Assembly: GCA_046861385.1 (NCBI GenBank)
Contig: JBHHTW010000006.1
Span: 29,801-93,800 of the forward strand
DNA length: 64,000 nucleotides
Direction of reading: 5' to 3'
DNA from: Fidelibacterota bacterium
GTDB taxonomy: Bacteria; Fidelibacterota; Marinisomatia; Marinisomatales; TCS55
Below are positions 8,847 to 64,000 of the stretch, one piece after another; the stretch's first letter is position 1; each line of letters starts with the position of its first letter. The notes beneath the pieces were generated by a model, which was given only the letters and a program-made list of their open reading frames with translations, did not search any database and had not been told where the DNA came from. The translations under genes and the position numbers were made by a program.

Positions 8847-10055
8847 TTAATTCAATTGTTTTAATGCGTATGCTACTTTGGATATGCCTCTTCGAATTGT
8901 ATCCCTATCCGTAGCGCACGAAAATCTTATATGCCCTGGCGCTCCGAAACCGTCCCCGGGAACGGTCACCACAGACCCAGAATTTAATATATATCCACTC
9001 AGATCGAAAGAATCCTGAATAATTTTACCATTGATCTTTTTTCCGATATAATGAGACATATTTGGAAATGTATAAAATGCGCCACCGGGGATTGCACAGG
9101 AAACGCCAGGAATTTCATTCAATAAACCCACCATTAAATCGCGGCGTTTTTTAAACTTCAACCTCATTTCCTCCACAGGTCGTTGATCACCGGTTAATGC
9201 TGCAATGGCAGCACGCTGACCTATGGAATTCGCACAGGATGTTGCCTGACCTTGAACCTTGCTCATGGCTTTAATGATCGCCTGCTCTCCCGCTGCATAT
9301 CCAATTCGCCAACCTGTCATGGCGTAGGTTTTTGAAAGACTCATACATGTGATTACTCTTGCGCCAATATTATGATCACGATTCAATTTTTCGGCGCTGA
9401 TAAATCCTCCATCAAAAATCAGTCGTTCATAACATTCGTCTGAAATCACAGTCCAATCACGGTTTGCTGCAATATTTAACAGCCTCATTAGTGCTTCCGA
9501 GCTCCACACTCCCCCGGTTGGATTAGATGGGGAATTAACAATGACACCTTTAATATTTTCCGTGGTTTTCTTTTCCAAATCATTGAAATCTACTTCAAAT
9601 TGCTTTTGGGAAAGCGTATTTACGATGATGGGTTCAGCATCTGCCAACCGTACAAATTCAGGAAACGATACCCAGTACGGTGTAAAAATAACCACTTCAT
9701 CACCTTGATCAAATAAAACTTGACAGGCGTTGTACAGGCTTTGTTTTTCACCATTTGAAACCAGAATTTCGTTTGGAATATATTCCAAACCGTTTTCCCT
9801 TTTTAATTTCTCACAAATCGCCTGGCGGAGTTCAATCATGCCGGAGCCAGCTGTATACTTTGTATATCCGTCGTCCATTGCTTTTTTCCCAGCCTCGATG
9901 ATATGATCCGGTGTATTAAAATCGGGCTCTCCTACGCTGAAGTTGATTACGTCAATGCCTTGAAATCGCATTTCAGCTGCCTTTGAAGCCATTTCCAGAG
10001 TATACGAAGGCTTCACCCGTGAAACGCGTTTTGCGAACTTGAGTTGAGATGTCAT
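8847..10055 (-). CDS. PLP-dependent aminotransferase class I (aspartate aminotransferase-like)
   Basis: [33 protein letters not shown]. Confidence 0.93.
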
Positions 10056-11144
10056 TTATAATTTATGCTGTTTTTTATGAAATTCAGGACTGTTGAATTT
10101 TGCATCTTCAGGACTGGCGTTGTCTGATACATCTATTTCAGAAAACGAATCATCTGTTTCTATCTCAAATTCTTCAGATAGTACTTTTTTACTGCTCTTC
10201 CTAACCGGTTTTTTCGTGGGCTTTCTCACGTTTTTTTTCACCGTCTTTTTTCCCGGTTTTTTAATTGGCTTTTCGTCTAGTTTTTCATCTTTTTCTTTAT
10301 CTTGTTTTTTGTTAGTCGTTTCCTTTTTAACTCTATTTCGTTTTGGTTTCGGAACATCTTTCATCGAGACACCTTCGAGATCAGACTCCGCATAAGCAAT
10401 TTGTGCCTCGGCTTCTTTTTTCTCAACATTTTCGTCTAATTCTTCCAGATCGAATTGAAAGGACTTTGGGTTAAACATACCATATAGTGCTCCATAACCG
10501 CGCGTAATTCCATTTCCAATTCCCATATAATTCGGGAGGAGAAAGTTGGTTCGAAATTCACCGGAAAATGCTCCCCAGAAACGTTCATCAACTGGTTTTG
10601 GAAACATGGAGGTTAGGTTCACTTTTGTAAAGATTTTGTCAGTGATCTCAACTCCCATTTCACGGGCAAGAAATACAATGTTTTGTCCCAAAAGCCGATT
10701 CAGAAATGATATACGTTCCATATTATTCAAGAAACGATAGCGACTGCCTGTGGTTTGATTTAACGCTACCCAGGGGGTCAGAAATCGATACCTGATTAAT
10801 CTGTCCACTTGTCTAAAGTGATCTGAGTTGGATACCACATCTGTATCAAACACCTGAAATGTAATATTGCCAAAGTCCAATATGTCGAGTCTGTCTGCTA
10901 ATTCTATAACAGGATCCACTCCTTCATGGATTCCGACAATATATATTTGCTCATTCAGGATTTTTACTTGCACCCGGGGGTAAAGAAATTGATCCCGGTA
11001 TGTACCATCCATCATTGAAATTACTTCCAAATCAGGATATTGACGCATAAAGACACCTTTAACCTGATATGGCGTCTTTCTGACTGGCTTATCCGTTAAA
11101 ACACGAACAGTAACTGTGCGCACCTCACTGTTACTATATTCCAT
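10056..11144 (-). CDS. cas6: Stand-alone Cas6 (Cas6b-like RAMP) protein with long charged C-terminal tail
   Basis: YPRVQVK, YRFLTPWVALNQ, FSGEFRTNFLLPNY and C-terminal G-loop GIGNGITRGYG (GhGxxxxxGhG); SD GAGGTG at 11150-11155; stop abuts next ATG (TAAATG). Confidence 0.82.
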   Translation of the reverse strand: MEYSNSEVRTVTVRVLTDKPVRKTPYQVKGVFMRQYPDLEVISMMDGTYRDQFLYPRVQVKILNEQIYIVGIHEGVDPVIELADRLDILDFGNITFQVFDTDVVSNSDHFRQVDRLIRYRFLTPWVALNQTTGSRYRFLNNMERISFLNRLLGQNIVFLAREMGVEITDKIFTKVNLTSMFPKPVDERFWGAFSGEFRTNFLLPNYMGIGNGITRGYGALYGMFNPKSFQFDLEELDENVEKKEAEAQIAYAESDLEGVSMKDVPKPKRNRVKKETTNKKQDKEKDEKLDEKPIKKPGKKTVKKNVRKPTKKPVRKSSKKVLSEEFEIETDDSFSEIDVSDNASPEDAKFNSPEFHKKQHKL

Positions 11145-11170
11145 ATTTACACCTCATTAGTTAGTTATAA

Positions 11171-11194
11171 TAAAAGGACTGCACCTTTAGCAGT
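11171..11194 (-). terminator. Small hairpin with short U-tract between rho and cas6
   Basis: Minus strand ACTGC-TAAAGGT-GCAGT then CCTTTTA; weak. Confidence 0.35.
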
Positions 11195-11203
11195 AAGTTA
11201 CAT

Positions 11204-12451
11204 TTATTGATTCATAGTTTCCATAAATTCTTCATTGCTCTTTGTCCGCTTCATTCTTGTATGCATAAACTCCATTGCTTCAATAACGTTCATTTCATTT
11301 AAGAGTTTCCTTAAAATCCACATTCTTCCAAGTGTCTTTTTATCCAGGAGCAATTCTTCTTTTCTTGTCCCGGAACGCACAATATCAAACGACGGGTATA
11401 TACGACGGTCACTTAGGCGGCGGTCTAAAACAAGTTCCATATTACCTGTTCCTTTAAACTCCTCAAAAATGACTTCATCCATCCTGCTTCCTGTGTCGAT
11501 CAAGGCGGTGGCAATAATTGATAAACTTCCACTTTCTTCAGTGTTTCTTGCTGCACCAAAAAATTGTTTCGGTTTTTTTAAAGCATTGGAATCAACACCA
11601 CCAGATAAAATTTTACCACTGTGTGGAATGACTGCGTTGTGAGCACGCCCTAGGCGTGTAAGGCTATCAAGTAATATGACTACATCATGGCCATATTCTA
11701 CCATGCGCCTTGCTTTTTGCAAAACCATATCTGCAACGGCAACGTGACGTTCGGGTGGTTCATCAAAAGTAGAGCTCACCACTTCTGCATCGACATGTTG
11801 TTTCATATCTGTTACTTCTTCCGGGCGTTCATCAATTAATAGGATAATTAATTTGATTTCCGGATGATTATTCAATAATGAATTAGCGATTTTTTGCAGC
11901 AGAACTGTTTTTCCTGTCTTTGGTTGAGCTACAATCAATCCTCGCTGTCCTTTCCCAATAGGAGAAATTAAATCCATAATCCTGGTTGATAAATCCTTTG
12001 GATCCGTTTCCAGGTTGAATTTTTTATCTGGATATTTTGGTGTTAGATTATCAAACAAGATTCCTTTTTTAACTTGATCCGGCGATTCGTCATTCACCGT
12101 TTCCAGTTTCAGCAGCGCGTAAAACCTTTCTTTTTCTTTTGGCTTTCGAATTTGCCCATAAACAGAATGTCCTGTTTTTAAACCGAAACGCTTAATTTGC
12201 GACGGACTCACATAAATATCATCCTGACCCGGTAAATAGTTATAATCAGGGCTTCTTAAAAAGCCGTAACCTTCGTTCAATACTTCCAGAACTCCTCTGG
12301 CGTGTAAAACGCCTTCTTTCTCGTTTTGTGCTTCAAGAACTTTAATAATTAATCCCTGCTTATTCAAGCCGGAAGAGCCCTGGATCTTTAAATCCTGAGC
12401 CAATTTTACCAGTTCTTTAATATTTAGGGATTGTAGTTGATTAACATCCAT
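11204..12451 (-). CDS. rho: Transcription termination factor Rho
   Basis: [43 protein letters not shown]. Confidence 0.98.
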
Positions 12452-27931: not shown

Positions 27932-29586
<1,655 letters not shown>

Positions 29587-29595
<9 letters not shown>

Positions 29596-29656
29596 TTAAT
29601 GGTAACTGGTGAGTGGTAACTGGTGAGTGGTAACTGGTGAGTGGTAACTGGTGGGT
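29587..29656 (+). repeat. Heptamer tandem repeat, (GGTAACT-GGTGAGT)n
   Basis: Ten consecutive 7-mers, including three perfect 14-bp units at 29601-29642. Confidence 0.9.
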
Positions 29657-29774: not shown

Positions 29775-30353
29775 TTAAAATCCGAGGTTATAATATATTC
29801 TGTCCCCGCCCATTTTACCGGTACAGATTAGTTCAACATTTTTTGGTTTTGATTTGAAATCGTAGATTAATTCTGCTGTGACTGATTTTGTTGGTTTAAT
29901 AATAGCCAAGTCCTGATATTTTCCTTCAAAGGGATTTAACTCGCCCTTGTTTTCTCCATTGCCAATCACTTTCAACAAAGCCATGGCTGAAAAATCCAAA
30001 TCCTTTGTGGGGTGAATGTTTGTCACTCGCAGCGAAACGGTTACTCTATTTCCATTGCGGGCCGCTTCCAGGAGATTGTATTTCCCGTGGTCAGCAATCT
30101 GCTCAACTCCGACAGGATGAGACACCCTTCCTTCTTTCAAGGATTCAATTGGAATATAAAATTCAATGGTCGCTTTAATAAACTTCCCTGACTTATCTTT
30201 TTTCAGTTTTACAACTTTTGTCCCCGGATATAATTGCCCGACCTGATTATTTTTTGATTCATCCCGGGAAGAATAAATCTTGGTATTTTTAATTGTTTCT
30301 GTTTCCTGGGCAAAAATGAGAAGAGGTAATAGTAAAGAAAATAAAAATTTCAT
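29775..30353 (-). CDS. Secreted protein, possible SH3-like + DUF4352-like Ig domain
   Basis: Signal peptide MKFLFSLLLPLLIFA; VGQLYPGTKV (SH3b-like); VTVSLRVTN...IKPTKSVTAELIYD. Confidence 0.5.
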   Translation of the reverse strand: MKFLFSLLLPLLIFAQETETIKNTKIYSSRDESKNNQVGQLYPGTKVVKLKKDKSGKFIKATIEFYIPIESLKEGRVSHPVGVEQIADHGKYNLLEAARNGNRVTVSLRVTNIHPTKDLDFSAMALLKVIGNGENKGELNPFEGKYQDLAIIKPTKSVTAELIYDFKSKPKNVELICTGKMGGDRIYYNLGF

Positions 30354-57498: not shown

Positions 57499-57773
57499 AA
57501 AAAAACTTTGGCATGTTTAACCATTTAGCCATAGTTTTGCTAATCCTTTTTTACAATGAAGGGAAAAATGTATGTTTTTTACACATACCTGTTAACTAAC
57601 CAAGGAGAAAATATGAAGAAACTTATGAGTTTAATCGCTGTCTTTGGGATGCTTTCAGGCCTCATGGCACAGAGTGGATCTATCTCTGGTACTGTAACTG
57701 ACCAGGATGGGAATGCCCTCCCCGGTGCCAATGTTGCCGTTGATGGAACATCCTTAGGCGCAGCGGCTGATGG
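57499..57773 (+). repeat. 275-bp direct repeat, copy 1 (promoter, leader and 5' coding end of TBDR)
   Basis: Aligns to 61432-61706 with 4 mismatches. Confidence 0.95.
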
Positions 57774-60315
57774 TCGTGGAGCATATTCGATTTCCGGCGT
57801 AGCCGCCGGAACGTATACCTTGTCCGTTTCATACATCGGTTATGAATCCGCCAGTCAAAGTGTGACTGTCAGTGCAGAAGCATCAACCCAAGCGAACTTT
57901 TCACTCGCTACGAGTGCATTAGCGGGCGCCGATGTTTTTGTTACAGGAACACGGGCAGCAGGACGGACAGCTATGAAATCCCCCACTCCCATCGACGGTT
58001 TCGATGATATGACATTGAGACGTCAAGGTAATGGTGATTTCACAGAAACACTGAAGAACATAGTGCCTTCATTTAATGCAACACCATTGACAGGTGATGG
58101 CGCAGCATTTGTACGACCTACTTCCATGCGTGGCCTTCCGCCGGATAATATTTTGGTAATGACGAATTCCAAACGCCGCCATCGTTCTGCATTGATCTCA
58201 CACTTTGGCGCTGCTATGAATGTTGGCGCTCAAGCTGTTGATGTGGGTATGATACCAAGCATCGCCATAAAAAAACTTGAAGTCTTGCGTGATGGAGCTG
58301 CGGCACAATACGGTTCTGATGCCATTGCCGGTGTGATGAATTTCATTCTAAAAGATAATTCTTCAGGTTATGAAGTTCAATTGACCGGTGGCCGCTGGAT
58401 GGAAGCTCCCAATGGGCGCGGTGGTGAAACTGATGTAACAATTGCAGCTAATATTGGATTACCTCTTACAGATGATGGTTTTGTCAATCTCAGTTTTGAA
58501 TATTCTGATAGACCTGAATTATCTCGCGGTTTCCAGCATGCATCTGCTTCTGATGGATACAAAGGTTGGGACGCTGAAGGTTTTACAAAGGATGATGAAT
58601 GGGGTTATGTTGGAGAGGGAACTGATAACACAGATGAATGGCAAACTGCCATGAACTGGGGTCGCCCGGAAAGCAATGGTTTTCGATCCGTTTGGAATGC
58701 AGGTTTAAAAATAAGCGACAATGTCGAAGCCTATTCCTTCGGAAATTACGCCGACACATTTGGAGAATATAGCTTCTTCCTACGTGCAGCAGGAAAATCA
58801 GGTGCCTTGACAGCTATCCCTCTTGACCCAACAGATCCTTCAAAAGGAGACTTTTCCTGGGGTGATACTTATCCATTGGGATTTACACCTCGTCTTGAAG
58901 GTCATGGAAATGATTTGAGCTCAGTCGTTGGTATTAAAGGTGATGATCTTTTTGGATTGGGCTACGACTTTAGTGCCAGTTATGGGAAAAATCATATTCG
59001 GTATTATCTGAAAAATACGTTGAACCTCTCTTGGGGGCCTTATTCACCTCATAATTTTGATATTGGAGACTTAGAGCAAGCAGAAACAAACCTGAATGCT
59101 GACTTTACTTACGCCTTATCAGAAGCTATTAATTTGGCTTTTGGTACAGAATGGCGTAAAGAATCTTACACAATGTTTCAAGGCCAAAAAGAATCTTGGA
59201 TGGCAGGTCCTTGGGCAACTGTACATACCTTAACATATGACTCTGCAGGTACAGGGAATATGGTCAATTATGGCTATACTGCCCCAGGTTCAGCCGCCAA
59301 TGGTATGCCGGGAACAAGCCCGGATGCTGCTGGTGTTTTCGATCGAACAAACACAGCATTTTATGCTGATGTTGAATATGCCATGGGCGATGCCTTGCTT
59401 CTGCAATTTGCAGCCCGTTCTGAAAACTTTTCAGACTTTGGTTCAACCAGTAATATTAAAGTTGCCGGTCGTTACTCAATAAGTGATTTGCTAACATTGC
59501 GTGGTGGTTATTCCACTGGCTTTAGAGCGCCAACACCTGGCCAATCGAACTATACGGGTATTGTTACCTCATTTGATGGAGTCACAGGTCTGCAAGTTCA
59601 AGAAGGTACAGTAAAACCGACTGATGCTCTTGCAGCTCAATACGGCGGTAAAGAACTTGGACCAGAAAATTCAGTCAATACTAGTTTTGGTTTTACATCA
59701 AACCCGATAGACAACCTGAGTTTGACTTTTGATATGTATCAAATTGATATTGAAGGTAAAATCTTAAAATCCCGTTCTATCTCTGTTGATGATCCAAATT
59801 TTTCAGAGTTAGCGTTTTACACCAATGCGTTGGATACAAAAACATCCGGCTATGATCTTGTTGCAGTTTATAGAATGGGTAATACCAATCTTAGTCTTGC
59901 AATGAACCATAATGAAACAGAAGTGGTTAAACAAAATCAGGTCAATGGTCAAAATCCAGTGTCTGATGGTAATGTTCAGAATCTTGAAGAAAATCTACCG
60001 AAAGATCGTATCACAGCTACTGTGACTCAAGACTTCGGAGAGGCTTTGTCTCTTATGGTTCGTCTAAATAATTATGGTGAATCTGTTGATGAACGCAGTC
60101 AGAAAGATGTCATTGACCCCATTACGTTTATCGATGTTGAATTGAGCTATGCTGTAAGCAACAATCTCAATGTGGTCTTTGGTGCAAATAATGTCACCAA
60201 TGCATATCCCAATAAAATATCCACACGTGCATCTCAAGGAATGCCTTATCCACGACGTTCGCCTCTTGGCTACCATGGTGGTTTTAGTTATCTGAAATTA
60301 TTGTATAACTTCTAA
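57613..60315 (+). CDS. TonB-dependent receptor with N-terminal CarboxypepD-like domain
   Basis: SD AAGGAG; GTVTD..GANV, EVLRDGAAAQYGSDAIAGV, C-terminal YNF. Confidence 0.95.
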   Translation: MKKLMSLIAVFGMLSGLMAQSGSISGTVTDQDGNALPGANVAVDGTSLGAAADGRGAYSISGVAAGTYTLSVSYIGYESASQSVTVSAEASTQANFSLATSALAGADVFVTGTRAAGRTAMKSPTPIDGFDDMTLRRQGNGDFTETLKNIVPSFNATPLTGDGAAFVRPTSMRGLPPDNILVMTNSKRRHRSALISHFGAAMNVGAQAVDVGMIPSIAIKKLEVLRDGAAAQYGSDAIAGVMNFILKDNSSGYEVQLTGGRWMEAPNGRGGETDVTIAANIGLPLTDDGFVNLSFEYSDRPELSRGFQHASASDGYKGWDAEGFTKDDEWGYVGEGTDNTDEWQTAMNWGRPESNGFRSVWNAGLKISDNVEAYSFGNYADTFGEYSFFLRAAGKSGALTAIPLDPTDPSKGDFSWGDTYPLGFTPRLEGHGNDLSSVVGIKGDDLFGLGYDFSASYGKNHIRYYLKNTLNLSWGPYSPHNFDIGDLEQAETNLNADFTYALSEAINLAFGTEWRKESYTMFQGQKESWMAGPWATVHTLTYDSAGTGNMVNYGYTAPGSAANGMPGTSPDAAGVFDRTNTAFYADVEYAMGDALLLQFAARSENFSDFGSTSNIKVAGRYSISDLLTLRGGYSTGFRAPTPGQSNYTGIVTSFDGVTGLQVQEGTVKPTDALAAQYGGKELGPENSVNTSFGFTSNPIDNLSLTFDMYQIDIEGKILKSRSISVDDPNFSELAFYTNALDTKTSGYDLVAVYRMGNTNLSLAMNHNETEVVKQNQVNGQNPVSDGNVQNLEENLPKDRITATVTQDFGEALSLMVRLNNYGESVDERSQKDVIDPITFIDVELSYAVSNNLNVVFGANNVTNAYPNKISTRASQGMPYPRRSPLGYHGGFSYLKLLYNF

Positions 60316-61176: not shown

Positions 61177-61461
61177 ATGTCCAAACGAACCCATTCTACT
61201 TTTATTCACCTTGAGTGTACAAGCTGTAATAAAATATTTCCTAAAGAACAATTATTGAATCTTTGTCCATCCTGCAGTTTACCCCTCTTTGCAAGATATG
61301 ATATGGAGAGAGCCCGTGTAGAAAAGATTGATGGTATTATCAGTGATTGTGGTGCAGTTGTTAATCAGCGCAAAGAACAAGAAGGTTGGTTTGATGTTTC
61401 CACATTAAAAGAACCGTATCGCGTTGAGGGTAAAAAAACTTTGACATGTTTAACCATTTAG
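61177..61461 (+). pseudogene. Threonine synthase-like remnant (internal deletion and 3' truncation)
   Basis: N-terminal CTSC..CPSC..RYD joined directly to IDGIISDCG...WFDVSTLKEPYRVEGKKT; no PLP-lysine region. Confidence 0.8.
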
Positions 61462-61706
61462 CCATAGTTTCACTAATCCTTTTTTACAATGAAGGGAAAA
61501 ATGTATGTTTTTTACACATACTTGTTAACTAACCAAGGAGAAAATATGAAGAAACTTATGAGTTTAATCGCTGTCTTTGGGATGCTTTCAGGCCTCATGG
61601 CACAGAGTGGATCTATCTCTGGTACTGTAACTGACCAGGATGGGAATGCCCTCCCCGGTGCCAATGTTGCCGTTGATGGAACATCCTTAGGCGCAGCGGC
61701 TGATGG
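61432..61706 (+). repeat. 275-bp direct repeat, copy 2
   Basis: Aligns to 57499-57773; carries -35 TTGACA at 61441. Confidence 0.95.
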
Positions 61707-64000
61707 AAGTGGTGCTTATACTATAACCGGTGTTGCACCGGGTACGTATACAGTATCTGCTTCATACATCGGTTACGAATCTACCACCCAAAGTGTTACC
61801 GTCGGGGCAGGAGCAACGCAGGCTGATTTTGCACTTGCTGTAAGCGCATTAGCTGCAAAAGCAATTTCTGTAATCGGTTCTCGTTTTTCGCACACAGCAG
61901 AAGATCAAGCCGTTCCAGTGGACGTTTTTACCGCTCAGGAAATTCGCCGTGCCGGTTTTTCAGAAACCGCTCAAATACTACAGTCATTAGCACCATCTTT
62001 TAATATGCCCCGAACATCCATATCAGATGGTTCCGATACAGTCAGGCCCATGACCCTTCGCGGGCTGAGTGCCGGACAAGTATTAGTTTTGGTTAACGGC
62101 AAACGACGCCACTCTACAGCGCTGGTACATGTTAATAATAGTCCCAGTCGTGGTGATAACGGCGTTGATCTAAATGCGATTCCTGCCGCAGCCATTGAAA
62201 GAATCGAAGTTCTTCGGGATGGCGCCGCAGCTCAATATGGTTCTGATGCCATTGCCGGTGTGATCAATATTGTTTTGAAATCTGCCAATAGCGGTGGATC
62301 TTTTAATGTCTATACCGGACATAACGAACACGTAATTGAAGCGATTCCTGAAGGTTACGACCTCTATGGTATTAAATATGGCGACGAAACTGAACCTTAT
62401 ACCTGGAACCCGACAACTGAAGTTGATTACTCTCGCAAGGCTGATGGAAACCCGGAAGCCATTGTAACTAGTAGTAAAGATTATACCGTGAATGACGGTG
62501 AAGTGACTCAATATCAGTTGACCCGCGGTTTTTCTATTGGTGATGGTGGATCATTGCTTATTGCGGCTGAATACCGCAGTCGCGGTAGATCCAATCGTGT
62601 TGGCGTTGAAGGCGAACAGTATTTTGAACCCAACTCCGATTATTGGAGTGACGACGATGCTGAATCACAACGCCTGAAATCCGGTTCGAACTGGTTTGTC
62701 GATCCGTTCAGAATGATCTGGGGCGATCAAGCCCAGGACAATATGGGCTTCATGTATAATGCTGATTTGCCATCTGGCGATAAACGGTATTATGCCTTTG
62801 GTGGCTATACACTCCGCCACGGTGACACGGGTTGTTTTACACGTCAGCCTGACCAAGGTAATAAAGTTTGGCTAAGCTCCAATCCTACCGGTTTTGTACC
62901 TCATATCCAACCGACTGTGACGGATTTTTCAACTGGTTTAGGAGTTGAGGGCGTTTTCGGAAATTGGAGTTACGATATTAGTAATACATATGGTACAAAT
63001 GATTTCCATTTCTATATGAACAGTACAAATGCCTCCTACGGTCCAGAACAACTTCGTCGTTATGACATTGGTGGCTTCAAGTTTCAGCAGAATAGTACAA
63101 ATTTTGATGGAACAACAACAATGGGGAATATTGATGTAGCTGCAGGGTTAGAATTGCGGTCTGAAAATTTCCGTATTTATGCCGGTGAAACTGCTTCTTT
63201 CGCCAATGGACAAGCCGGTACGAGCGTTTCAGGATGGGATTCTTCATATGTTGACACCGCTGGTGTAACACAATATGTTGGGCTCAACAGCAAAACAGCT
63301 GGAAGCGGCTGTCAGTGTTTCAGCGGCTTTAAACCTTCCAACGAACTGGCTACAAAAAATGCTGACCGCAGTGTGATGGCTTTTTATGGTGACGCTGAAA
63401 TGGACATGGGTATGGTCCGAGTTGGCGGTGCTGTTCGCATGGAAAACTATAATGATACGCAATTAGATGGAACTGACCACACATACAGTAACTTGAGTGT
63501 TAAAGGAACAGTTCGAGCAGAACCTATGTCAGGTGTTGTGGTTCGAGGTGCATTCAGCACCGGTTTCCGCGCCCCGGCACTGGCCCAGGCTTATCAAGCC
63601 AAGATCGCTACAAACTTCCTGCCTGATCCTCAGACCGGTGAAACCGTGGCGTTTGAAGTGGGTACATTCCCGGTCAGTCATGGTTTTCCCCAAGCGTTGG
63701 GTGCTGAAGCACTTACCCCGGAAACATCAACTAATTTGAGTTTCGGGACTTCGTTAGTTTTGGGCGATATTCGCATCAATGCCGACTATTATAATGTTGC
63801 TCTTAAAGATCGCATCGTGTTAACCGGTAACTTTACCGGAAGCTCTGATACAACTGGTAATCCTTTTGGATATGCCATTCAATCTTTATTGGATGATGCA
63901 AATGAAAATGCCTCCGGAGGCCGTTTCTTTATGAACGGTGTTGACACAAAAACATCCGGAATTGATATTACAGCCGCCTATGGAATGGACCTCGGTGGAT
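61546..64000 (+). CDS. Second TonB-dependent receptor (partial, runs off window end)
   Basis: Absent from the ORF track; read manually: MKKLMSLIAVFG...TLRGLSAGQVLVLVNGKRRH...EVLRDGAAAQYGSDAIAGVINIVLK. Confidence 0.92.
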   Translation, partial: MKKLMSLIAVFGMLSGLMAQSGSISGTVTDQDGNALPGANVAVDGTSLGAAADGSGAYTITGVAPGTYTVSASYIGYESTTQSVTVGAGATQADFALAVSALAAKAISVIGSRFSHTAEDQAVPVDVFTAQEIRRAGFSETAQILQSLAPSFNMPRTSISDGSDTVRPMTLRGLSAGQVLVLVNGKRRHSTALVHVNNSPSRGDNGVDLNAIPAAAIERIEVLRDGAAAQYGSDAIAGVINIVLKSANSGGSFNVYTGHNEHVIEAIPEGYDLYGIKYGDETEPYTWNPTTEVDYSRKADGNPEAIVTSSKDYTVNDGEVTQYQLTRGFSIGDGGSLLIAAEYRSRGRSNRVGVEGEQYFEPNSDYWSDDDAESQRLKSGSNWFVDPFRMIWGDQAQDNMGFMYNADLPSGDKRYYAFGGYTLRHGDTGCFTRQPDQGNKVWLSSNPTGFVPHIQPTVTDFSTGLGVEGVFGNWSYDISNTYGTNDFHFYMNSTNASYGPEQLRRYDIGGFKFQQNSTNFDGTTTMGNIDVAAGLELRSENFRIYAGETASFANGQAGTSVSGWDSSYVDTAGVTQYVGLNSKTAGSGCQCFSGFKPSNELATKNADRSVMAFYGDAEMDMGMVRVGGAVRMENYNDTQLDGTDHTYSNLSVKGTVRAEPMSGVVVRGAFSTGFRAPALAQAYQAKIATNFLPDPQTGETVAFEVGTFPVSHGFPQALGAEALTPETSTNLSFGTSLVLGDIRINADYYNVALKDRIVLTGNFTGSSDTTGNPFGYAIQSLLDDANENASGGRFFMNGVDTKTSGIDITAAYGMDLGG

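Follow-up and report, generated by a model that had tools for sequence, protein, structure and literature searches.

We analysed a 64,000-nucleotide stretch of a Fidelibacterota (Marinimicrobia) genome of the order Marinisomatales (contig JBHHTW010000006.1 of assembly GCA_046861385.1, forward-strand positions 29,801 to 93,800; hereafter the window), in which the gene directly downstream of rho encodes a domesticated Cas6b that lacks the catalytic histidines and probably does not cut RNA. The gene was called as an open reading frame of 362 aa plus stop at 10056..11144 on the minus strand, and it belongs to no CRISPR system. The protein is probably a non-cutting RNA-binding protein that is co-expressed with Rho, and it looks as if a component of CRISPR has been put to new use here in housekeeping RNA work. 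Public records name the members of the family "hypothetical protein" or, misleadingly, "CRISPR-associated endonuclease Cas6", the latter being the NCBI label of the member P0029.

Homology to Cas6b and predicted fold

Cas6b is the type I-B endoribonuclease for CRISPR RNA (crRNA), which cuts repeat RNA and leaves an 8-nt 5' handle. The Pfam search of the 362-aa protein matched Cas6b_N (PF17955) at residues 7-102 with an E value of 4.1e-10 and Cas6b_C (PF17262) at residues 114-220 with an E value of 4.5e-24. The bit scores were 40.1 and 85.3 against cut-offs of 25 and 39.4, respectively, and the former was far below the 97.2 bits of an operon-borne Cas6b of the same phylum. The NCBIfam search returned no family. 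In the phmmer search against the Protein Data Bank (PDB), residues 27-220 aligned to residues 22-215 of Cas6b from Methanococcus maripaludis (4z7k) with an E value of 8.3e-28. The AlphaFold2 model, computed from a 109-row alignment, had a mean predicted local distance difference test (pLDDT) score of 82.2, with block means of 93-98 across residues 11-220. The fold domain (residues 1-220) is encoded at 10485..11144 on the minus strand.

Foldseek searches with the model gave 4z7k_A as the top PDB match, with an E value of 1.8e-18, a target-normalised template modelling (TM) score of 0.83 and 27% identity, and other chains of 4z7k and 4z7l were also at the top. Type IV Cas6/Csf5 and then other Cas6 structures followed, including distant matches to two Sulfolobus proteins, 4ill_A (E 5.2e-06) and 3zfv_A (E 3.3e-05). 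The protein is a true Cas6b relative with the two-lobed ferredoxin-like fold of the RAMP proteins. It shares with the M. maripaludis enzyme (4Z7K/4Z7L) both Pfam domains, the identity and TM score given above over ~195 residues, the YPxxQxK motif and the glycines of the glycine-rich loop (G-loop). However, it differs from that enzyme in having neither His38 nor His40, in the substitutions of Tyr47 by Phe and of the loop Lys/Arg by Asn, in the lack of an array and of cas genes, in its fixed place after rho and, in the order of the window, in a tail of 91-140 aa.

Replacement of the active-site residues

The gene drew attention through an original prediction, made by a model from the letters of the window, that the segment EVISMMDG ahead of YPRVQVK lacks the HNH motif of Cas6b of the M. 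maripaludis type. The letters were right. EVISMMDG forms residues 40-47 at 11004..11027 (minus strand), so the span 11007-11027 given for it corresponds to E40-D46, and YPRVQVK lies downstream in the protein at residues 55-61. The HNH motif is H38-N39-H40 of the M. maripaludis enzyme, and it is indeed absent: phmmer placed V37-H38-N39-H40-R41 over I42-S43-M44-(gap)-M45. In the alignments (phmmer and MAFFT), S43 (11016-11018) lay over His38, M45 (11010-11012) lay at or beside His40, and F53 (10986..10988) took the place of Tyr47. Mutation of H38 or H40 to alanine alone lowers cleavage by the M. maripaludis enzyme and the H38A/H40A double mutation causes a drastic loss, while Y47A also lowers cleavage, according to the parts of Richter et al. 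(2012, PMC3479195) available to us.

To compare these positions across the family, we took the best 150 of 836 proteins found at E <= 0.001 as representatives. A YPxxQxK-type motif with 22 residues upstream was readable in 106 of them, comprising 52 with HxH, 5 with one His, 47 without His and 2 others; the remaining 44 gave no match to the motif expression and were mostly fragments. The His-less type reads P/S-[MFYL]-[LMIV]-[NDSA]-G. The 109-row MAFFT alignment consisted of the window protein, 48 locus orthologs, 6 tailed representatives, 7 short His-less forms and 47 canonical proteins. The canonical rows were hand-picked from 59 non-clade proteins with a readable motif, leaving out the deviant P0092, P0141, P0142 and P0149 as well as 8 with HxH.

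The loss of the His pair extended over the whole clade of the window protein (55 rows). Position 43 was His in 47/47 canonical rows and Pro (49) or Ser (6) in the clade, and position 45 was His in 44/47 canonical rows as opposed to Leu (44) or Met (11). Position 53 was Tyr in 44/47 canonical rows, as opposed to Phe in 52/55. The loop GIGNGITRGYG (residues 208-218, 10491..10523, minus strand), which follows the GxGxxxxxGxG pattern of Cas6b close to the C-terminal end of the fold, was kept as predicted, with G210, G216 and G218 invariant in 109/109 rows. Within this loop, however, position 211, an Arg in M. maripaludis and Lys (43) or Arg (2) in the canonical rows, was Asn in all 55 clade members (N211 at 10512-10514 in the window) and in 6/7 short His-less forms.

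We further examined 64 orthologs, namely the window protein and 63 complete ones (L045, L065 and L066 were omitted as incomplete). In this set, 82 positions were invariant or had one exception, and none of those within residues 1-235 was a histidine. The 109-row alignment showed K19, K23, E65, Q66, D90-F-G-N-I-T-F-Q97, E162, E187 and W190 to be fixed in the tailed clade only. Since many domain positions are invariant only there, the fold has gained new constrained surfaces along with the tail.

Absence of CRISPR-Cas partners

The window contained no CRISPR-like array, and its only Rfam match was one tRNA. The assembly (104 contigs, 2.43 Mb, 97.85% complete) was also searched. A k-mer scan for arrays gave three candidates, all of which were plain tandem or coding repeats, and no Cas1, Cas2, Cas7 (PF05107), Cas3_HD or Cas8b was found in the assembly, while control genomes gave matches; in a metagenome bin, no absence can be taken as certain, and this holds above all for arrays. 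The Cas6b-like gene was the sole Cas6b_C match in the assembly. As a positive control from the same phylum, locus L078 carried an HNH-bearing Cas6b inside a cas6b-cas8b-cas7-cas5-cas3 operon.

Two further Cas6b genes were seen in the genus of the window, an HNH type at L075:7313-7999 and an NNH type at L076:7244-7900, neither adjoining rho. A genome of this genus, G184, has the rho-linked gene together with separate HNH-type Cas6b copies. Within 9.3 kb of L075 no cas gene was found, and the neighbouring gene encodes an ORF6N/Rha-like phage regulator. The L075 and L076 genes thus cannot be claimed as CRISPR-linked, and the L075 type might represent another class of solo Cas6b, carried perhaps by a mobile element.

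Position after rho and distribution in the phylum

A locus scan with one genome per species gave 66 loci. Nearly all of them were titled as Marinimicrobia, Neomarinimicrobiota or Fidelibacterota metagenome-assembled genomes (MAGs) or as "uncultured bacterium", and two as FCB group bacterium. Using tblastn with the neighbours of the window gene, we found rho directly upstream in 66/66 loci and the aminotransferase gene directly downstream in 57/66; of the other nine loci, six ended first and three had a different arrangement. One incomplete locus, L066 (CAXRJK010000109.1), was titled Winogradskyella sp. It showed the row amidase-murI-folC-rho-Cas6b-like and a Rho 80% identical to that of the window, and is probably a mis-binned contig.

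The domain-only search gave a match in 161/301 genomes, although some of the matches in other classes were ordinary Cas6b. In the order of the window, the gene was present in every family without gaps (f1 41/41, f2 7/7, f4 25/25, f5 8/8, etc.) except f3, whose 30 genomes of ~1 Mb gave no match; outside f3, it was found in 115/115 genomes searched. In the same class, it was found in 7/8 and 9/10 genomes of families f19 and f21, compared with 0/15, 0/2 and 0/3 of families f17, f18 and f20, and its occurrence in other classes was patchy. We examined the context of 12 more distant or second matches. Nine of them, with 29-40% identity and 220-263 aa, were located 16 to ~70 nt after rho, which was thus directly upstream in 9/9 distant lineages, and all nine lacked HxH. 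The other three were not beside rho and read HNH (L075, L078) or NNH (L076). In L072, L073 and L079, rho and the Cas6b-like gene were 16-23 nt apart and were the sole members of the row still together, folC and the aminotransferase gene not being found in the 15-kb stretches of these loci. P0029 and P0031 are the most basal of the His-less representatives. Two scans of metagenomes for their genomic context found nothing; the NCBI name assigns P0029 to a Fidelibacterota MAG.

Single origin and selection

A maximum-likelihood tree was built with a quick IQ-TREE run from the domain residues only (85 rows, 233 columns, every third member of the tailed clade, root not known). A single branch with an SH-aLRT support of 99 separated 35 His-less rows from 50 His-bearing rows, the latter including L075, L076 and L078. 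On the His-less side, the tailed clade was followed by forms of the same class and then by forms of the same phylum, an order that follows kinship. Because one branch divides the two groups and the inner order follows kinship, the sequences fit one loss of the His pair and subsequent vertical descent. The folded domain is under very strong purifying selection. The ratio of nonsynonymous to synonymous substitution rates (dN/dS, NG86), taken between the window gene and the three closest orthologs whose dS was not saturated, was 0.015, 0.025 and 0.027 for residues 1-220, and the tail gave 0.21, 0.13 and 0.11 in these three pairs.

Features of the C-terminal tail

The tail (residues 221-362, 10059..10484, minus strand) is a polyampholyte that was mostly modelled at low confidence. 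It was confined to the order of the window, with a median length of 119.5 aa (range 91-140), a K+R fraction of 0.21 and a D+E fraction of 0.22 among the 64 orthologs. Four conserved islands are separated by variable charged linkers: G(M/L)FNPxxFxF(D/N)x at residues 222-233 (10446..10481), AESDLxxVxxxxVPKPKR at residues 252-269 (10338..10391), KK(V/I)LSEEFxIE at residues 319-330 (10155..10190) and FNSPEFHKKQHKL at residues 350-362, the extreme C-terminus (10059..10097), all on the minus strand. In the second island, V264, P265 and P267 were at least 90% conserved. The AlphaFold2 model gave a short strand at residues 257-259 and a pLDDT of 88 for residues 261-270, which hints at a packing of the VPKPKR island against the Cas6b fold. 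The Lys-rich stretch at residues 266-320 (10185..10349, minus strand) has 26 K/R and 7 D/E in 55 residues, and its length and sequence differ among orthologs.

The motif [FY]N[STR]x[EK][FYH]H[KQRS][KMR][QR]Hx[LIFWV] closed 63/63 complete orthologs, and N351, H356 and H360 of this FNSxEYHKKQHxL segment were invariant in the 64 sequences. A search of all six reading frames of the genome gave no second occurrence of this motif. The Pfam search of the tail found no family (best E 0.088), and the ESM Atlas search returned solely matches of its own kind or scores below 0.9. The weak PDB match of the tail was a segment of the Lys-rich ribosomal protein eL31 (E = 2), which is compositional only. Since short rho-linked forms exist without the tail, the conserved function must reside in the Cas6b fold.

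Proposed function and alternatives

We propose, with a probability of about 0.5, that the protein is a domesticated Cas6b paralogue that binds a particular RNA of the cell tightly and leaves it uncut, and that the tail adds RNA affinity and partner docking. The protein retains the two-lobed fold and the RNA-clamping scaffold of the glycine loop. The groups with a known or likely part in the chemistry of Cas6b have been swapped for inert ones, namely the His pair for Ser or Pro and Met or Leu, the Tyr for Phe and the loop Lys or Arg for Asn. The gene has left CRISPR and is inherited vertically in the Marinimicrobia directly after rho in a row of housekeeping genes. The specific RNA would be held uncut, in the way Cas6 proteins hold their products; to our knowledge, RNA binding is the one activity common to all studied Cas6 proteins. 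In the order of the window, the Lys-rich stretch of the tail would add unspecific RNA affinity and the four short conserved motifs would recruit partners. The original prediction had gone further and named the protein a hairpin-binding adaptor. The hairpin was a guess, as we found no conserved hairpin target, and the adaptor role is inferred from gene context and tail. The prediction did not touch on what we regard as the main point, that the gene stands outside any CRISPR system and adjoins rho throughout the phylum.

The reading of a non-cutting binder has to be weighed against contrary evidence, which is set out here with the alternatives that it favours. The folded domain is less basic than that of canonical Cas6b (median net charge +2 vs +5). 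Another part of the evidence concerns cleavage. Cleavage need not be lost with the His pair, because a Sulfolobus Cas6 without an active-site His still cuts RNA, using Lys25, Lys28, Lys51 and Arg231 (K25, K28, K51 and R231), as described in the sections of PMC3652601 that we could consult. According to a review (PMC6546412), the residues that Cas6 enzymes use for catalysis likewise vary, with His, Arg, Lys and Tyr in differing combinations. Furthermore, K19, K23, Y26 and K29 in the strand-1/helix-1 region, as well as R50, R57, K61 and R215, are invariant in the tailed clade, and the dN/dS of 0.015-0.027 would suit an enzyme as well as a binder. The protein could therefore be a site-specific endoribonuclease with a rewired, His-free active site of Lys, Arg and Tyr that processes a housekeeping RNA, such as a polycistronic transcript or the precursor of a stable RNA. 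We consider this possible but less than likely. All four chemistry-linked positions changed to inert residues with no other acid or base groups, and the change in the glycine loop removed a basic residue and added none. K29, K61 and R215 are family-wide and not new, whereas K19 and K23 are fixed in the tailed clade only. In the 7 short rho-linked forms, position 19 was Q (2), K (2), T, R or I (1 each) and position 23 was V (3), K, F, S or R (1 each); these lysines thus do not qualify as a catalytic set shared by all rho-linked forms. The prediction that nuclease activity is lost or rewired while the G-loop is kept fits the replaced residues and the preserved fold and glycine scaffold as far as canonical catalysis is concerned, whereas the His-less Sulfolobus enzyme shows that a loss of all activity need not follow.

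A further part concerns the tie to Rho. In favour of a partnership are the unbroken adjacency throughout the phylum, the short spacers and the fact that the pair persists in loci where nothing else is left of the row. However, the whole eight-gene row amidase-murI-folC-rho-Cas6b-like-aminotransferase-rpmE-DUF1385 is syntenic, and prfA and prmC continue it in the window. Rho was found in 290/301 genomes, including those of several families without the gene (27/30 vs 0/30 in f3, 15/15 vs 0/15 in f17 and 9/9 vs 0/9 in f30), and in f3 and f17 folC, rho and the aminotransferase gene follow one another, the Cas6b-like gene having dropped out cleanly. The gene is thus dispensable for Rho function as such, and if the two proteins cooperate, the Cas6b-like one is accessory. 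No column of Rho was near-invariant in the 41 sequences from gene-bearing genomes while differing in 3 or more of the 5 from genomes that lack the gene, a weak comparison given the five negatives. The place after rho may then be no more than inherited gene order, with the protein in a Rho-unrelated role, for example as an RNA chaperone or in association with ribosomes or the nucleoid through its Lys-rich tail, in keeping with the compositional match to eL31. We regard this as unlikely, since rho and the gene are still 16-23 nt apart in L072, L073 and L079, where folC and the aminotransferase gene were not found, and since the tail-less short forms place the function in the Cas6b fold, and all relatives of this fold studied so far bind particular RNAs, not RNA in general. 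A functional tie to Rho-dependent termination beyond co-expression would be a bolder proposal, in which the Cas6b-derived domain reads an RNA signal for termination by binding a motif of the nascent transcript, and the tail motifs VPKPKR, LSEEFxIE and FNSxEYHKKQH recruit or block Rho or RNA polymerase. We hold this to be somewhat more doubtful still; if true, it would mean sequence-programmed termination or antitermination in Marinimicrobia and the first Cas protein drafted into the central machinery of transcription throughout a phylum. A predicted complex of Rho (32-row alignment) with the Cas6b-like protein (109 rows) scored 0.20, with the mark at 0.32, which counts neither for nor against a partnership. 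Finally, the NCBI name of P0029 and the frequent loss of arrays from metagenome bins would suit a stand-alone Cas6 that processes crRNA for arrays or effector genes at other sites of the genome or missing from the assembly. We consider this very improbable, as the 97.85%-complete genome yielded no Cas1, Cas2, Cas3_HD, Cas7 or Cas8b and no array, the occurrence in 115/115 searched genomes of the order outside f3 differs from the patchy spread of CRISPR-Cas, G184 keeps HNH-type copies beside the rho-linked gene, and the catalytic residues are gone.

In the Rho of two f3 loci (L083:1285-2604 and L084:1312-2598), we also observed an insert of 19-25 aa, rich in Lys, Glu, Asn and Pro, between the helices at the N-terminus and the RNA-binding domain. 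In family f17, which is likewise without the gene, Rho has no such insert, so that no link between the insert and the absence of the gene is evident.

Candidate RNA targets

The search for the RNA that the proposed binder would hold also yielded evidence against it, as no conserved RNA target was found and the heptamer GGTGTAG was the sole conserved non-coding element nearby. The heptamer, often as AGGTGTAGCA, occurred within 60 nt upstream of the gene start in 35/66 loci, at distances of -9, -25, -35 and -42, and further spacers had near-variants of it. A second conserved block, GTAA(A/C)TT, directly followed the rho stop (L002-L064 spacers). In the window, the 59-nt spacer between rho and the gene (11145..11203, minus strand) contained a degenerate copy of GGTGTAG(CA) and a terminator-like hairpin, ACTGC-TAAAGGT-GCAGT with CCTTTTATTA, at 11178-11194. 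RNAalifold gave no consensus structure for the spacer element in 12 close relatives. The element was not enriched in intergenic regions of the genome (7/72 and 5/32 sites, compared with 7.5 and 3.3 expected), and it was missing from the 9 distant rho-linked loci. We therefore rejected GGTGTAG(CA) as a conserved autoregulatory site; it may be a lineage-specific cis element. The repeat processed by M. maripaludis Cas6b forms a stem-loop only once bound, as stated in the part of the review seen by us (PMC6546412).

A separate family of paired hairpins resembling repetitive extragenic palindromic (REP) sequences or miniature inverted-repeat transposable elements (MITEs) was observed outside the window. 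The stem is CAGACA/TGTCTG plus a few bases, with compensating changes, the loop is [AG][AG]AA, and two hairpins often stand in tandem. The pattern CAGACA-N4-TGTCTG had 29 sites in the genome (e.g., C1:526-565, C22:308-413 and C54:2377-2416), whereas neither the window nor any of 79 loci examined had one. At least 7 copies were present in just 7/111 genomes of the order, which belong to four families; this distribution points to an element that is mobile or turns over fast. Most gene-bearing genomes, among them one from the genus of the window, had no copy, and the hairpins were therefore rejected as a conserved target.

Relation to known systems

The Sulfolobus solfataricus Cas6 proteins (Sso1437, PDB 3ZFV; Sso2004, PDB 4ILL) likewise have no active-site His. 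They still bind and cut RNA through Lys and Arg (PMC3652601), but they serve CRISPR arrays and belong to another Cas6 branch. The Streptomyces cas5-cas6-cas7-cas8 set with a STAND NTPase and the haloarchaeal HRAMP system, described by Koonin and Makarova (2022, PMC8730458, in the passages we saw), also comprise Cas proteins without adaptation genes or arrays and presumably have a new role. However, these remnants are multi-gene systems with a patchy, defence-like spread, unlike the single, vertically inherited Cas6b gene in a housekeeping operon found here.

Catalytically dead Cas6 proteins, such as Csy4 H29A, serve as RNA-binding handles in synthetic biology. The proposed principle is the same, a Cas6 fold holding RNA tightly without the catalytic His, but those tools are engineered and their hairpin target is known, whereas the present protein is natural and its target putative. 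Cas proteins are also known as recruits of transposons, plasmids and viruses and as odd remnants of defence systems.

Our literature searches gave no report of a rho-linked or Marinimicrobia Cas6, with subscription journals largely outside their coverage. Neither the essay on CRISPR exaptation of 2022 (PMC8730458) nor the classification of 2025 (PMC12669027) mentions a rho-linked Cas6 in the parts accessible to us. The latter, in the same parts, treats matches outside cas islands as false positives in profile building.

A single Cas6 that is fixed through the history of a phylum in a housekeeping operon, under selection matching that on core genes, would clearly exemplify the conversion of an immune RNA-handling protein into a cellular RNA factor. 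The family is a natural experiment on what Cas6 function remains without the catalytic residues, and it could supply a compact, natural, high-affinity RNA-binding module. The Marinimicrobia (SAR406) are uncultured and abundant in the dark and low-oxygen ocean, and because they are uncultured, gene-level leads to their RNA biology are scarce.

Gene neighbourhood and other features of the window

By Pfam, the same-strand row of the window consists of genes for N-acetylmuramoyl-L-alanine amidase, glutamate racemase, FolC/Mur ligase, Rho, the Cas6b-like protein, a class I/II aminotransferase, L31, DUF1385, RF1, PrmC and a UbiA prenyltransferase. The rho gene (Rho_N, Rho_RNA_bind and ATPase domains) is located at 11204..12451 and the aminotransferase gene at 8847..10055, both on the minus strand. 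GAGGTG precedes the start codon of the Cas6b-like gene, and its stop codon TAA abuts the ATG of the aminotransferase gene without a gap.

Several repeats were observed elsewhere. Direct repeats ~3.93 kb apart, at 57499-57798 and 61432-61731 (300 nt, 96%) and at 58224-58353 and 62151-62280 (130 nt, 70%), suggest tandem paralogous genes. A tandem 14-nt unit, TGGTAACTGGTGAG, was present in 3.9 perfect copies at 29585-29653, and related runs, ACCAGTTACCACTC, occurred elsewhere in the genome (e.g., C96:549-700). An 18-mer family, TAATTAT(T/G)TAAAACGTAA, had ~10 dispersed copies in the genome, partly as adjacent units (ACGTAAATATGTAAAACG...).

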